4,764 nucleotides of DNA from a virus (taxonomy: Duplodnaviria; Heunggongvirae; Uroviricota; Caudoviricetes), in the IMG/VR virus record IMGVR_UViG_2663762945_000003, one strand, 5' to 3'. The stretch's first letter is position 1; each line of letters begins with the position of its first letter. Below the pieces are notes generated by a model, which was not told the origin of the DNA, searched no databases, and worked only from the letters and a program-made list of their open reading frames with translations. Below, piece by piece: positions 1 through 4,764 of this stretch. The position numbers and the translations under genes were made by a program.

Positions 1-849
1 CTTTTTGCAAGTTACTGTCAGCTTTCCATCTGATTTTTTAATGCCTTCAATTTCAACTTCTTCTGTAAGTTCTTTGTTGGAAAGTTTCTCACGTGGGTTT
101 CTTATCATTTCGGCAATATCACGCTTATCTAATTCGATCTTTGCCATACCATTAAACTCTACTCTGTCAGCATCTGAGACGCCTTTCAACACCCCAACCA
201 CAGCATTTGAAGTATGGGATTGAATTCCCTCTGAAATCTCCCTCGCAGCTGCTGTGGCAGTATGAGCAGAAAGAACTTCAACCATGCCATCTTTAAGCAG
301 TCTCATTTGCTCAGTTTGGCTGTTGGTGTCGTTGAGGCCTTCATCAATCTCAAGTTGCTTCATTTTTTCTATATGGCGATCTTTTTGTCTCGACTTTATC
401 AGCCAAGCCCCAGTAAGGATCAGCGATATGAGAACGAGACATATAGCTTTCTCTGTTCCAGTCATACCTTGTGTTGACCTCTCAAATGCAACACCAAATG
501 AATCAATTACATCCTTTATAGCAACAAGTAGGTCAGTACAGCCAGGCTCAACTTTAAAAATTATCTCAAGCTCTTTTCTATCACTGTCTTTCAAATGCTT
601 GAGATTATCCGTTCCTCGCCTTACAAGCATAAACGCTTTATAAAGTTCGGTCTGAAACTCGCACATACCTTGAGCTAAAGAGGACGGTATCGTCCCATTA
701 TACCGGTCTGGATCACCATAAATCTTGAAACTTACGTGGTTAACAAAATCAATTTTAATGTCATTGATAGATATTTGCTGACCTTTCTGAACTCTTTCTA
801 AAAACTCTGAAACGTCGCTTAATGATGAGATATCAATTTGATTGTCCAT
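1..849 (-). CDS. Hypothetical protein, N-terminal 283 codons (3' end lies beyond window start); non-Rex gene at the rexA/rexB position immediately downstream of cI; one predicted transmembrane helix
   Basis: Own translation of the reverse complement: ATG at 849..847, then 283 sense codons with no stop down to nt 1 (MDNQIDISSLSDVSEFLERVQKGQQISINDIKIDFVNHVSFKIYGDPDRYNGTIPSSLAQGMCEF...). It is absent from the supplied ORF track only because it has no in-window stop. Possible weak SD (GAGAA) 5-9 nt upstream of the ATG. Only 22 bp separate it from the cI stop, same strand, so it is probably co-transcribed with cI. Hydrophobic stretch AICLVLISLILTGAWLI (about residues 152-168) followed by a basic cluster KSRQKDRH. 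Does not match RexA as I recall it. The three + strand ORFs in the track (5..223, 262..477, 284..643) overlap it antisense and are taken as spurious. Confidence 0.75.
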   Translation of the reverse strand, partial: MDNQIDISSLSDVSEFLERVQKGQQISINDIKIDFVNHVSFKIYGDPDRYNGTIPSSLAQGMCEFQTELYKAFMLVRRGTDNLKHLKDSDRKELEIIFKVEPGCTDLLVAIKDVIDSFGVAFERSTQGMTGTEKAICLVLISLILTGAWLIKSRQKDRHIEKMKQLEIDEGLNDTNSQTEQMRLLKDGMVEVLSAHTATAAAREISEGIQSHTSNAVVGVLKGVSDADRVEFNGMAKIELDKRDIAEMIRNPREKLSNKELTEEVEIEGIKKSDGKLTVTCKK

Positions 850-871
850 ATCTTTTCTCAATGTTATTGTG

Positions 872-1588
<717 letters not shown>

Positions 1589-1591
1589 TTA

Positions 1592-1620
1592 AATCTATCA
1601 CCGCAAGGGATAAATATCTA
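1592..1620 (-). promoter_or_regulatory. PRM promoter (cI maintenance promoter); -10 TAGATT (1597..1592), -35 TAGATA (1620..1615)
   Basis: Hexamers read directly on the minus strand at the positions expected from lambda; the -10 lies 7 nt upstream of the cI ATG (leaderless mRNA). Confidence 0.8.
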
Positions 1621-1659
1621 ACACCGTGCGTGTTGACTGCTTTACCTCTAGCGGTGATA
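1596..1659. promoter_or_regulatory. Right operator OR: OR3 1596..1612 (TATCACCGCAAGGGATA), OR2 1619..1635 (TAACACCGTGCGTGTTG), OR1 1643..1659 (TACCTCTAGCGGTGATA)
   Basis: Three 17-bp partially palindromic sites between the divergent cI and cro starts. OR3 and OR2 match the lambda operators as I recall them; OR1 differs at one position (A at 1650 where lambda has G). Confidence 0.88.
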
Positions 1660-1661
1660 AT
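1633..1661 (+). promoter_or_regulatory. PR promoter; -35 TTGACT (1633..1638), 17-bp spacer, -10 GATAAT (1656..1661)
   Basis: Near-consensus sigma-70 hexamers with 17-bp spacing overlapping OR2/OR1, followed by SD AAGGAGG (1675..1681) and the cro ATG at 1686. Confidence 0.88.
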
Positions 1662-1676
1662 AATTGCATGTACTAA

Positions 1677-1886
<210 letters not shown>

Positions 1887-1893
1887 ATAACAC

Positions 1894-1925
1894 CGCTCTT
1901 ACACATCACAGCCCTGAAAAAGGGC
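1894..1925 (+). promoter_or_regulatory. nutR N-utilisation site: boxA CGCTCTTA (1894..1901) and boxB hairpin GCCCTGAAAAAGGGC (1911..1925); Rho-dependent tR1 region follows (about 1926..1990)
   Basis: boxB is a perfect 5-bp stem (GCCCT/AGGGC) around a GAAAA loop, as in lambda nutR; boxA lies 9 nt upstream. tR1 is inferred from position only, since Rho-dependent terminators lack a crisp motif. Confidence 0.8.
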
Positions 1926-1994
1926 ATCCAATTAAACCACACCTATGGTGTATGCATTTATTTTCATACATTCAATCAATTGTTATCTAAGGAA

Positions 1995-2027
1995 ATACTT
2001 ACATATGGTTCGTGCAAACAAACGCAA
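1995..2027 (-). promoter_or_regulatory. PRE (promoter for repressor establishment) with CII-binding direct repeats TTGC-N6-TTGC (2027..2024 and 2017..2014, minus strand) and -10 AAGTAT (2000..1995)
   Basis: Minus strand reads TTGCGTTTGTTTGC flanking the -35 position, the classic CII recognition tetrads, with a -10-like hexamer downstream; the element overlaps the 5' end of cII on the opposite strand as in lambda. Confidence 0.75.
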
Positions 2028-2298
2028 CGAGGCACTACGAATCGAGAGTGCGTTGCTTAACAAAATCGCAATGCTTGGAACTGAGAAGACAGCGGAAGCT
2101 GTGGGAGTTGATAAGTCGCAGATCAGCAGGTGGAAGAGGGACTGGATTCCAAAGTTCTCAATGCTGCTTGCTGTTCTTGAATGGGGGGTCGTTGACGACG
2201 ACATGGCTCGATTGGCGCGACAAGTTGCTGCGATTCTCACCAATAAAAAACGCCCGGCGGCAACCGAGCGTTCTGAACAAATCCAGATGGAGTTCTGA
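2005..2298 (+). CDS. cII: CII transcriptional activator, 97 aa
   Basis: Track ORF 1945..2298 contains MVRANKRNEALRIESALLNKIAMLGTEKTAEAVGVDKSQISRWKRDWIPKFSMLLAVLEWGVVDDDMARLARQVAAILTNKKRPAATERSEQIQMEF. The true start is the internal ATG at 2005, preceded by SD AAGGAAAT (1990..1997); the 20 extra upstream codons of the track ORF are read-through of the intergenic region. Confidence 0.95.
   Translation: MVRANKRNEALRIESALLNKIAMLGTEKTAEAVGVDKSQISRWKRDWIPKFSMLLAVLEWGVVDDDMARLARQVAAILTNKKRPAATERSEQIQMEF
2244..2270 (-). terminator. Intrinsic terminator of oop RNA (7-bp stem CGCUCGG/CCGGGCG with one G-U pair, 6-nt loop, then U6)
   Basis: Read on the minus strand: CGCTCGG-TTGCCG-CCGGGCG-TTTTTT (plus-strand A-run 2245..2250). 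It lies inside the 3' end of cII on the opposite strand, where the oop terminator is expected. Confidence 0.7.
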
Positions 2299-2321
2299 GG
2301 TCATTACTGGATCTATCAACA
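2244..2321 (-). ncRNA. oop: oop antisense RNA (about 77 nt), antisense to the 3' end of cII
   Basis: Bounded by the PO promoter (predicted start near 2321) and the intrinsic terminator at 2244..2270; length and position match lambda oop. Ends are inferred, not mapped. Confidence 0.6.
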
Positions 2322-2328
2322 GGAGTCA

Positions 2329-2357
2329 TTATGACAAATACAGCAAAAATACTCAAC
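2329..2357 (-). promoter_or_regulatory. PO promoter for oop; -35 TTGAGT (2357..2352), 17-bp spacer, -10 CATAAT (2334..2329)
   Basis: Hexamers read on the minus strand; the -10 overlaps the O start codon on the opposite strand. Confidence 0.6.
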
Positions 2358-3230
2358 TTCGGCAGAGGTAACTTTGCCGGACAGGAGCGTAATGTGGCAG
2401 ATCTCGATGATGGTTACGCCAGACTATCAAATATGCTGCTTGAGGCTTATTCGGGCGCAGATCTGACCAAGCGACAGTTTAAAGTGCTGCTTGCCATTCT
2501 GCGTAAAACCTATGGGTGGAATAAACCAATGGACAGAATCACCGATTCTCAACTTAGCGAGATTACAAAGTTACCCGTCAAACGGTGCAATGAAGCCAAG
2601 TTAGAACTCGTCAGAATGAATATTATCAAGCAGCAAGGCGGCATGTTTGGACCAAATAAAAACATCTCAGAATGGTGCATCCCTCAAAACGAGGGAAAAT
2701 CCCCTAAAACGAGGGATAAAACATCCCTCAAATTGGGGGATTGCTATCCCTCAAAACAGGGGGACACAAAAGACACTATTACAAAAGAAAAAAGAAAAGA
2801 TTATTCGTCAGAGAATTCTGGCGAATCCTCTGACCAGCCAGAAAACGACCTTTCTGTGGTGAAACCGGATGCTGCAATTCAGAGCGGCAGCAAGTGGGGG
2901 ACAGCAGAAGACCTGACCGCCGCAGAGTGGATGTTTGACATGGTGAAGACTATCGCACCATCAGCCAGAAAACCGAATTTTGCTGGGTGGGCTAACGATA
3001 TCCGCCTGATGCGTGAACGTGACGGACGTAACCACCGCGACATGTGCGTGCTGTTCCGCTGGGCATGCCAGGACAACTTCTGGTCCGGTAACGTGCTGAG
3101 CCCGGCCAAACTCCGCGATAAGTGGACCCAACTCGAAATCAACCGTAACAAGCAACAGGCAGGCGTGACAGCCAGCAAACCAAAACTCGACCTGACAAAC
3201 ACAGACTGGATTTACGGGGTGGATCTATGA
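2331..3230 (+). CDS. O: Replication initiator protein O, 299 aa
   Basis: ORF track protein MTNTAKILNFGRGNFAGQERNVADLDDGYARLSNMLLEAYSGADLTKRQFKVLLAILRKTYGWNKPMDRITDSQ... matches lambda O as recalled; it contains the origin iterons in its middle and overlaps P by ATGA. Confidence 0.96.
   Translation: MTNTAKILNFGRGNFAGQERNVADLDDGYARLSNMLLEAYSGADLTKRQFKVLLAILRKTYGWNKPMDRITDSQLSEITKLPVKRCNEAKLELVRMNIIKQQGGMFGPNKNISEWCIPQNEGKSPKTRDKTSLKLGDCYPSKQGDTKDTITKEKRKDYSSENSGESSDQPENDLSVVKPDAAIQSGSKWGTAEDLTAAEWMFDMVKTIAPSARKPNFAGWANDIRLMRERDGRNHRDMCVLFRWACQDNFWSGNVLSPAKLRDKWTQLEINRNKQQAGVTASKPKLDLTNTDWIYGVDL
2679..2806. repeat. ori-lambda: four about 18-bp iterons (2679..2696 ATCCCTCAAAACGAGGGA; 2699..2716 ATCCCCTAAAACGAGGGA; 2723..2740 ATCCCTCAAATTGGGGGA; 2746..2764 ATCCCTCAAAACAGGGGGA) followed by an AT-rich unwinding region (about 2766..2806)
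   Basis: Direct repeats with internal dyad symmetry (TCCCTC...GAGGGA) are visible in the sequence, followed by an A-rich tract (ACAAAAGAAAAAAGAAAAGATTATT), all inside the O reading frame as in lambda. Confidence 0.9.
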
Positions 3231-3928
3231 AAAACATCGCCGCACAGATGGTTAACTTTGACCGTGAGCAGATGCGTCGGATCGCCAACAACATGCCGGA
3301 ACAGTACGACGAAAAGCCGCAGGTACAGCAGGTAGCGCAGATCATCAACGGTGTGTTCAGCCAGTTACTGGCAACTTTCCCGGCGAGCCTGGCTAACCGT
3401 GACCAGAACGAAGTGAACGAAATCCGTCGCCAGTGGGTTCTGGCTTTTCGGGAAAACGGGATCACCACGATGGAACAGGTTAACGCAGGAATGCGCGTAG
3501 CCCGTCGGCAGAATCGACCATTTCTGCCATCACCCGGGCAGTTTGTTGCATGGTGCCGGGAAGAAGCATCCGTTACCGCCGGACTGCCAAACGTCAGCGA
3601 GCTGGTTGATATGGTTTACGAGTATTGCCGGAAGCGAGGCCTGTATCCGGATGCGGAGTCTTATCCGTGGAAATCAAACGCGCACTACTGGCTGGTTACC
3701 AACCTGTATCAGAACATGCGGGCCAATGCGCTTACTGATGCGGAATTACGCCGTAAGGCCGCAGATGAGCTTGTCCATATGACTGCGAGAATTAACCGTG
3801 GTGAGGCGATCCCTGAACCAGTAAAACAACTTCCTGTCATGGGCGGTAGACCTCTAAATCGTGCACAGGCTCTGGCGAAGATCGCAGAAATCAAAGCTAA
3901 GTTCGGACTGAAAGGAGCAAGTGTATGA
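3227..3928 (+). CDS. P: Replication protein P (DnaB helicase loader), 233 aa
   Basis: ORF track protein MKNIAAQMVNFDREQMRRIANNMPEQYDEKPQVQQVAQIINGVFSQLLATFPASLANRDQNEVNEIRRQW... matches lambda P as recalled; start overlaps the O stop (ATGA). Confidence 0.96.
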   Translation: MKNIAAQMVNFDREQMRRIANNMPEQYDEKPQVQQVAQIINGVFSQLLATFPASLANRDQNEVNEIRRQWVLAFRENGITTMEQVNAGMRVARRQNRPFLPSPGQFVAWCREEASVTAGLPNVSELVDMVYEYCRKRGLYPDAESYPWKSNAHYWLVTNLYQNMRANALTDAELRRKAADELVHMTARINRGEAIPEPVKQLPVMGGRPLNRAQALAKIAEIKAKFGLKGASV

Positions 3929-4215
3929 CGGGCAAAGAGGCAATTATTCATTACCTGGGGACGCATAATAGCTTCTGTGCGCCGGACGTTGCCGCGCTAA
4001 CAGGCGCAACAGTAACCAGCATAAATCAGGCCGCGGCTAAAATGGCACGGGCAGGTCTTCTGGTTATCGAAGGTAAGGTCTGGCGAACGGTGTATTACCG
4101 GTTTGCTACCAAGGAAGAACGGGAAGGAAAGATGAGCACGAACCTGATTTTTAAGGAGTGTCACCAGAGTGCCGCGATGAAACGGGTATTGGCAGTATAT
4201 GGAGTTAAAAGATGA
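3925..4215 (+). CDS. ren: Ren protein (Rex-exclusion endurance), 96 aa
   Basis: ORF track protein MTGKEAIIHYLGTHNSFCAPDVAALTGATVTSINQAAAKMARAGLLVIEGKVWRTVYYRFATKEEREGKMSTNLIFKECHQSAAMKRVLAVYGVKR matches lambda Ren as recalled; ATGA overlap with the P stop. Confidence 0.93.
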   Translation: MTGKEAIIHYLGTHNSFCAPDVAALTGATVTSINQAAAKMARAGLLVIEGKVWRTVYYRFATKEEREGKMSTNLIFKECHQSAAMKRVLAVYGVKR

Positions 4216-4240
4216 CCATCTACATCACTGAGCTAATAAC

Positions 4241-4273
4241 AGGCCTGCTGGTAATCGCAGGCCTTTTTATTTG
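4241..4273 (+). terminator. tR2-like intrinsic terminator (8-bp stem AGGCCTGC/GCAGGCCT, 8-nt loop, T-rich tail TTTTTATTT)
   Basis: Perfect inverted repeat 4241..4248 / 4257..4264 followed directly by a T-run, in the ren-ninB intergenic region where lambda tR2 lies. Confidence 0.75.
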
Positions 4274-4288
4274 GGGGAGAGGGAAGTC

Positions 4289-4764
4289 ATGAAAAAACTA
4301 ACCTTTGAAATTCGATCTCCAGCACATCAGCAAAACGCTATTCACGCAGTACAGCAAATCCTTCCAGACCCAACCAAACCAATCGTAGTAACCATTCAGG
4401 AACGCAACCGCAGCTTAGACCAAAACAGGAAGCTATGGGCCTGCTTAGGTGACGTCTCTCGTCAGGTTGAATGGCATGGTCGCTGGCTGGATGCAGAAAG
4501 CTGGAAGTGTGTGTTTACCGCAGCATTAAAGCAGCAGGATGTTGTTCCTAACCTTGCCCAGCAGGACAGCTACGTGCTGGCAGATGTGCTGGCAACGTTG
4601 CGCGCGGCAGGTGTTCCAGCGTTAACCGATGACAACTATGCGGTGATGAAGGTGGCTCGAATCGGCTGTGAATGCGGCGCGAATGTCTCGACATTTTCCT
4701 GCTTCAAGCTATTTGGGCCAGAGGGTGTTGGTGCAGTGGTCGGCGATGCTGATGTTATCAACCG
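4289..4764 (+). CDS. ninB: NinB (Orf-family recombination mediator) N-terminal about 90 codons, continuing in frame into non-lambda sequence; no stop before the window end (chimeric or fused ORF)
   Basis: Own translation from the ATG at 4289 (SD GAGGGAAG upstream): MKKLTFEIRSPAHQQNAIHAVQQILPDPTKPIVVTIQERNRSLDQNRKLWACLGDVSRQVEWHGRWLDAESWKCVFTAALKQQDVVPNLA, which matches lambda NinB as recalled. From about nt 4559 the frame continues QQDSYVLADVLATLRAAGVPALTDDNYAVMKVARIGCECGANVSTFSCFKLFGPEGVGAVVGDADVIN, which is not NinB-like. Lambda NinB is 146 aa and would have ended before the window end, yet this frame is open for 158+ codons. Not in the ORF track because it has no in-window stop. Confidence 0.7.
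   Translation, partial: MKKLTFEIRSPAHQQNAIHAVQQILPDPTKPIVVTIQERNRSLDQNRKLWACLGDVSRQVEWHGRWLDAESWKCVFTAALKQQDVVPNLAQQDSYVLADVLATLRAAGVPALTDDNYAVMKVARIGCECGANVSTFSCFKLFGPEGVGAVVGDADVIN

Follow-up and report, generated by a model that had tools for sequence, protein, structure and literature searches.

The locus described here joins parts of two known proteins. The first is NinB of phage lambda (Orf, a recombination mediator; PF05772), whose intact gene spans 146 codons in relatives. The second, E. coli YhfS (b3376; WP_000847144.1), has a solved structure (PDB 4J8L) that was deposited as 'Uncharacterized protein YhfS'. A literature search found neither a functional characterisation of YhfS nor any papers citing 4J8L, and a 2024 paper still counts it among the uncharacterised proteins (PMC11227560).

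By profile, the nearest solved relatives of YhfS are the PLP enzymes of Cys/Met metabolism (PF01053; 1gc0, the cystathionine gamma-synthase 9gj9, and 3ndn). YhfS has the D-x-x-Y spacing of methionine gamma-lyase (DNTY in the lyase, DDNY in YhfS), but overall similarity to this group is just ~20-25%, the S-x-T-K of these enzymes reads S-C-F-K in YhfS, and YhfS differs further in having its own C-terminal domain (PF22475). The class V enzymes and cysteine desulfurases (PF00266; SufS/CsdB 1i29, IscS 1p3w and 4w91) form the second group for comparison. Here, the YhfS segment FSCFKLFGPEGVGAV aligns gap-free with F(T/S)GHK(V/I)YGP(S/K)G(I/V)G, with the Asp further upstream likewise aligned. In contrast, the class V His that precedes the PLP-lysine (S-x-H-K) is replaced by Phe (F195) in YhfS, and the Gln found three residues after the Asp (D-x-x-Q; D-G-S-Q in 4w91) is replaced by Tyr (Y173).

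The window, by which we mean the whole stretch of 4,764 nucleotides analysed, has in common with lambda NinB the first 90 residues, at 99-100% identity, whereas the last 56 residues are absent and host sequence stands in their place. With YhfS it has in common residues 148-214, identical and in the same frame, so that 67 of the 361 residues are present; NinB 1-90 and a Gln take the place of residues 1-147, and the window stops short of residues 215-361, to which the YhfS-like_C domain belongs. We read the window as a phage/chromosome chimera, the last 206 bases of which should be annotated neither as a phage PLP domain nor as a NinB fusion.

The phage part of the window

ORF listing and reading of the sequence identify positions 1-4558 as a lambda-like prophage, covering its immunity and replication region (Table 1). 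This part is 99.9% identical to the prophage of E. coli PCP06101/PCP06102 and 99.7% identical to phage mEp332, and lambda itself matches positions 876-4558 at 98.6% identity. Across phages, E. coli genomes and plasmids, every phage or prophage alignment to the window ends at 4558. The O protein is the common lambda-type O, and its exact sequence is listed in 15,208 blocks. The operator region appears lambda-like by eye.

Table 1 Features of the 4,764-nt window; positions are counted from its first base.
Feature	Position	Strand	Basis or remark
ORF, first 283 of 345 codons	1-849	-	occupies the place of lambda rexA/rexB; phrog_6191
cI	872-1585	-	Peptidase_S24 (4.6e-29), HTH_3 (2.6e-11); annotations of records H61 and H76
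cro	1686-1886	+	annotations of records H61 and H76
cII	2005-2298	+	annotations of records H61 and H76
O	2331-3230	+	ORF, matching-record annotation, Pfam Phage_rep_O; four ori iterons visible inside
P	3227-3928	+	ORF, matching-record annotation, Pfam Phage_lambda_P on the same protein
ren	3925-4215	+	called Ren in matching phages and prophages
ninB (orf), codons 1-90, truncated	4289-4558	+	Pfam NinB; lambda and relatives
Junction dinucleotide CA, from neither parent	4559-4560	+	lambda-type ninB has GG, yhfS has CC
yhfS fragment: last base of codon 147, codons 148-214, two bases of codon 215	4561-4764	+	204/204 nt
YhfS Asp170 (D170, first Asp of TDDNY), GAT, predicted partner of the PLP pyridine nitrogen	4628-4630	+	aligned with Asp186 of 1gc0
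YhfS Lys196 (K196, FSCFK), AAG, predicted Schiff-base (internal aldimine) Lys	4706-4708	+	aligned with Lys211 of 1gc0

The CI protein of the window is taken by us to differ from lambda CI by a handful of residue changes, for instance MSAKKK for MSTKKK and KSDAEKW for KGDAERW; compared by eye in this way, the window cI belongs, as a natural allele, to the lambda immunity type and is not that of a laboratory phage. A laboratory lambda vector was also considered as the source of the phage part and rejected, given the mere 98.6% identity to lambda and the non-lambda gene that replaces rexAB. A full-length copy of this 345-codon gene is found at 19812-20849 of L003, between cI and N. It matches phrog_6191, of 'unknown function', with E=6e-116, and searches of Pfam and PADLOC returned no match to it in either. 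Its position suggests a candidate lysogen-expressed exclusion or defence gene. In mEp332, the annotation in the stretch that corresponds to window 1-849 is 'T2SS GspM containing protein'.

At the right-hand end of the phage part, window 4289-4558 matches ninB of lambda and of lambda relatives at 99-100% identity as far as its final base, where the gene breaks at codon 90. Pfam NinB scores 120.6 bits on the window product over profile positions 2-95 of 131, so that the window holds less than the full-length NinB/Orf domain (PF05772). After the break point, ninB in every relative reads GGGAATGG..., and the DNA of the phage and prophage relatives beyond 4558 continues with GGGAATGGCTTTG....

The tail and its parent gene

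Megablast matched window 4561-4764 to yhfS of E. coli K-12 over 204 of 204 nt (E=1e-101), and yhfS of PCP06101 is identical as well. The tail was recovered from 5,053 of the 5,426 complete E. coli genomes, always within yhfS, and many strains besides K-12 match it over 204 of 204 nt. The native yhfS frame is both the frame of the tail and that of ninB, with Q92 of the fusion corresponding to Q148 of YhfS. The translation that begins at the ninB start consists of residues 1-90 of NinB followed by QQDSYVLADVLATLRAAGVPALTDDNYAVMKVARIGCECGANVSTFSCFKLFGPEGVGAVVGDADVIN, and the ninB-frame translation of 4289-4764 as a whole (...VVPNLAQQDSYVLADVLATLRAAGVPALTDDNYAVMKVARIGCECGANVSTFSCFKLFGPEGVGAVVGDADVIN) contains the very peptide in which the first-pass annotation had recognised a PLP-lysine region. 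The 67 residues from Q92 onwards are those of PDB 4J8L residues 148-214 (67/67 aa, E=7.6e-40). The hybrid ORF consists of NinB 1-90, one Gln and YhfS from residue 148, and runs off at YhfS residue 214, as the window end (4764) falls inside yhfS.

The motif reported in the tail is therefore real because of the identity to yhfS and to the 4J8L chain; by itself it carried no statistical proof. In the proposed Pfam search, the tail alone (68 aa) remains sub-threshold on Aminotran_5, at 16.6 bits (E=0.004) where 21.5 are required; full-length YhfS passes the cut-offs of Aminotran_1_2 and Cys_Met_Meta_PP. Position 4559, from which the first-pass annotation dated the change of sequence, is the true junction. 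It had also remarked that the N-terminal half of the enzyme would be missing, and YhfS residues 1-147 are indeed absent from the window, where phage ninB lies upstream of 4559. Its description of the tail as the 3' part of a truncated PLP-enzyme gene was correct as to truncation; more exactly, the tail is an internal fragment of yhfS beginning at codon 148.

These identities make it highly probable that the tail is a verbatim fragment of a known E. coli chromosomal gene, as opposed to an evolved or functional fusion. The PLP-lysine motif is accordingly that of a widespread gene with a solved structure, and was already known. We expect that the fusion ORF should have neither YhfS nor NinB activity, since it is without YhfS 1-147, which includes the GAGTGA loop (nearly invariant in the YhfS family) and other conserved positions, and without the last 56 residues of NinB. 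The biological weight of the tail is correspondingly small, as a fragment of a known and widespread E. coli gene that is unable to work alone.

The other possibility raised at first is effectively excluded, namely a PLP-like domain, diverged or degenerate, that NinB would have gained in evolution as an extension of its C-terminus. The ninB ORF does continue in frame, and Phe does stand where His would be expected before the Lys, but the DNA is 100% identical to an intact chromosomal gene, and no other ninB in the E. coli genomes, phages and plasmids searched carries a C-terminal PLP-like extension, the junction itself being found nowhere else. Moreover, the Phe in question (F195) is no sign of decay: it is a family trait, since it is invariant across all YhfS orthologues compared. 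The substitution of Phe for His was thus correctly seen, but does not mark the domain as degenerate.

Predicted active site and fold of YhfS

To place the parent protein, we aligned K-12 YhfS with 32 orthologues and the window tail (alignment A4). The orthologues were chosen from relatives in 80 species obtained with a genome scan; they extend from Escherichia to Clostridia and Erysipelotrichaceae (Firmicutes) and are 54-96% identical to K-12 YhfS. A family profile built from K-12 YhfS and the 32 orthologues returned structures of cystathionine gamma-synthase and methionine gamma-lyase first (E 9e-10 to 2e-7), followed by the SufS/CsdB cysteine desulfurases (E 1e-6 to 1e-5). Full-length YhfS (361 aa) matches Pfam YhfS-like_C with 7.5e-44 (PF22475, residues 255-354 of the parental protein), and passes Aminotran_1_2 (39.8 bits against a cut-off of 19.7, 4.2e-10) and Cys_Met_Meta_PP (28.7 bits against 27, 6.6e-7), whereas Aminotran_5 (PF00266) is narrowly missed (21.2 bits against 21.5). 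A significant profile match to fold-type I PLP enzymes is thereby obtained with the parent protein, while the 68-aa tail alone gives none.

Searches with NCBIfam yielded weak matches of YhfS to models of methionine gamma-lyase, sulfhydrylase and SufS/CsdA, none of which comes near its cut-off; the SufS and CsdA models, for example, scored 14-23 bits against cut-offs of 475-661. The reaction of none of these enzymes can be transferred to YhfS, because the scores fall far below every equivalog cut-off.

In methionine gamma-lyase, Asp186 is the partner of the pyridine nitrogen and Lys211 is the Schiff-base lysine. A phmmer alignment with the P. putida enzyme (1gc0) places D170 of YhfS on Asp186 and K196 on Lys211. 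The Lys of the SGTK motif of O-succinylhomoserine sulfhydrylase 3ndn falls in the K196 column too, as does, in an ungapped 56-residue alignment, the Lys of FTGHK/SSNK in the SufS-like chain 4w91 and the IscS-like chain 4r5f; D170 is aligned with the Asp of LVDGSQ in 4w91. The check proposed by the first-pass annotation, that the Lys and Asp should fall on catalytic positions, thus came out in its favour with both 1gc0 and 4w91. From these alignments, K196 would form the internal aldimine with PLP in the intact enzyme, and D170 is predicted to hydrogen-bond the pyridine nitrogen.

Both a Schiff-base Lys homologous to that of fold-type I enzymes and an Asp ~25 residues before it are found in the alignment. 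The profile matches place YhfS among the fold-type I PLP enzymes, between the gamma-family and class V. Its likeness to cysteine desulfurases is genuine homology, although cysteine desulfurases are not its nearest relatives. The first-pass annotation had assigned the tail to the PLP-lysine region of class-V aminotransferase-fold enzymes. The tail is a PLP-Lys/Asp segment of fold type I, as that reading implied; class V as the family is not supported and is at best an approximation, with YhfS remaining under the Pfam gathering threshold and lacking both the His before the Lys and the Gln three residues after the Asp.

Within alignment A4, which reaches down to 54% identity, D170, D171, N172, Y173, K177, F192 and S193 are invariant, as are F195, K196, L197, G199, P200, G202 and G204. 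YhfS, an enzyme of uncharacterised reaction, has in these residues an invariant S-x-F-K / D-D-N-Y active-site signature between those of the gamma-family and class V. Written out, the invariant signature is DDNYAVMK...FSxFKLxGPxGxG (170-177, 192-204), in which K177 is a second invariant Lys. It occurs in Enterobacterales and, at 54-58% identity, in Firmicutes, which suggests a conserved reaction of the YhfS family and, perhaps, that the yhf cluster has spread horizontally.

The ninB-yhfS joint and its origin

The match to phage runs as far as 4558 (...CCTAACCTTGCC) and that to yhfS starts at 4561 (GCAGGACAGC...), with the two bases CA in between. Alignments to both parents revealed a joint free of microhomology. 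The CAG allele (CCG to CAG) of yhfS codon 147 occurs in none of the E. coli genomes: a query edited accordingly reached 99.5% at best, equivalent to the single engineered mismatch. Junction-centred megablast against 5,426 complete E. coli genomes, 50,697 phage records and 72,556 plasmids did not find the joint, and the junction 33-mer and 24-mer were absent from viral, genome and metagenome contig collections. In the 50,697 phage records, yhfS DNA of any part was likewise absent. A chimera formed at a restriction site or by proximity ligation was considered and rejected: ninB breaks at CCGG, but the yhfS side is without CCGG and the site is not regenerated, so we regard the CCGG as coincidence.

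The joint is non-homologous, with two unmatched bases (CA), and connects ninB codon 90 of an mEp332/PCP06101-type prophage to the yhfS fragment. It happens to keep the reading frame, the likelihood of an in-frame fusion being ~1 in 3 given the orientation.

PCP06101 contains both parents in their normal places. Its prophage occupies the lambda attB site (3.15 Mb), adjoining ybhC, and carries ninB on the minus strand; its yhfS, of an allele identical to the window tail, has yhfT and frlR as neighbours and is found on the plus strand, at 0.39 Mb. The two genes are 2.76 Mb apart on opposite strands, and a deletion joining them cannot occur in a viable cell. Specialised transduction or aberrant excision was rejected, as the prophage sits at attB 2.76 Mb from yhfS and ninB is mid-prophage, not near an end.

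A simple inversion in a PCP06101-like lysogen, with the two loci as its end points, would account for the sense-to-sense orientation of the joint. Illegitimate recombination would in that case have inverted ~2.76 Mb of chromosome from ninB of the attB prophage to yhfS, with a reciprocal product in which yhfS codons 1-147 (...CGCCAGCAGCC) are followed by ninB codons 91-146 (GGGAATGGCTTTG...). The opposite strands of ninB and yhfS in PCP06101 are the arrangement needed for a sense-sense joint, and for each half of the window that one genome contains a counterpart of 99.9-100% identity. However, chance alone would put the two genes on opposite strands half the time, the joint is without microhomology and it occurs in 0 of 5,426 complete genomes. 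Such an inversion would also span the terminus asymmetrically, and the organisation of the E. coli chromosome leads us to expect that the resulting very unequal replichores would normally be strongly counter-selected. We hold this origin to be quite improbable.

We consider it most likely, with a probability somewhat better than even, that the join is a chimeric molecule or assembly formed in vitro or in silico. This origin is favoured because the joint is unique, lacks homology and links two loci that are intact together in one genome type, where any other route would require a costly rearrangement. The CA filler is unlike a simple in-silico concatenation of the known parents, and points to physical joining, which is equally possible in vivo; the two untemplated bases mildly favour an event in vivo. 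Rare illegitimate recombination in vivo, whether by capture or by inversion, is less likely than an artefact, and we would give it only a minor share of the probability. A genuine and very recent event of this kind, either replacement of part of the nin region by a yhfS fragment or rearrangement of a lysogen chromosome, is likewise unlikely; both would produce an in-frame NinB-YhfS hybrid ORF. What probability remains is left to engineering or to some other origin.

Capture of host DNA by the phage is the second form that an in vivo event might have taken. Part of the dispensable nin region would have been replaced by a piece of the yhfS locus through two illegitimate recombinations during replication in an E. 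coli cell; the window would then show the left joint alone, and a new host-derived passenger gene (moron) would have been caught at its start. The lambda nin region is dispensable, the nin5 deletion being viable, and real prophages have breakpoints just after ninB. The CA filler suggests a physical join, and the 100% identity between the host part and the host gene is what an event of very recent date should leave. Against this, yhfS DNA is present in 0/50,697 phage records, the junction is missing from viral contigs and from all other collections, and the right-hand joint lies outside the window. We therefore view capture as improbable. Were it true, the window would offer a snapshot of the first step in host-gene acquisition by a phage; and a join that is real, by whatever route, would illustrate modestly but cleanly how a lambdoid prophage can recombine illegitimately with a distant host gene.

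An E. coli prophage (L010 8378-8914; CP125919.1) provides the example of such a breakpoint. Here, ninB is followed by an ORF with Pfam matches to Dam and Phage_min_tail, after which come the tail genes L, K, I and J. The arrangement resembles the product of a deletion within the prophage that joined the nin region to the tail module, and shows that real genomes do have breakpoints just after ninB.

The sequence CAGCAGGA occurs in ninB 32 nt downstream of the break and agrees with window 4559-4566 at 8 of 8 positions, of which GCAGGA is common with yhfS. A two-step template switch could explain CA on this basis, yet it needs an extra 32-bp deletion without homology, and we mention it as a remark only. 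ninB also contains a 10-bp direct repeat, CAGCAGGATG, at window 4531-4540 and at L003 24592-24601, with starts ~61 bp apart. The junction sequence CAGCAGGA matches the second copy of this repeat, the copy that is missing from the window; this match may be a hint of template switching, or a coincidence.
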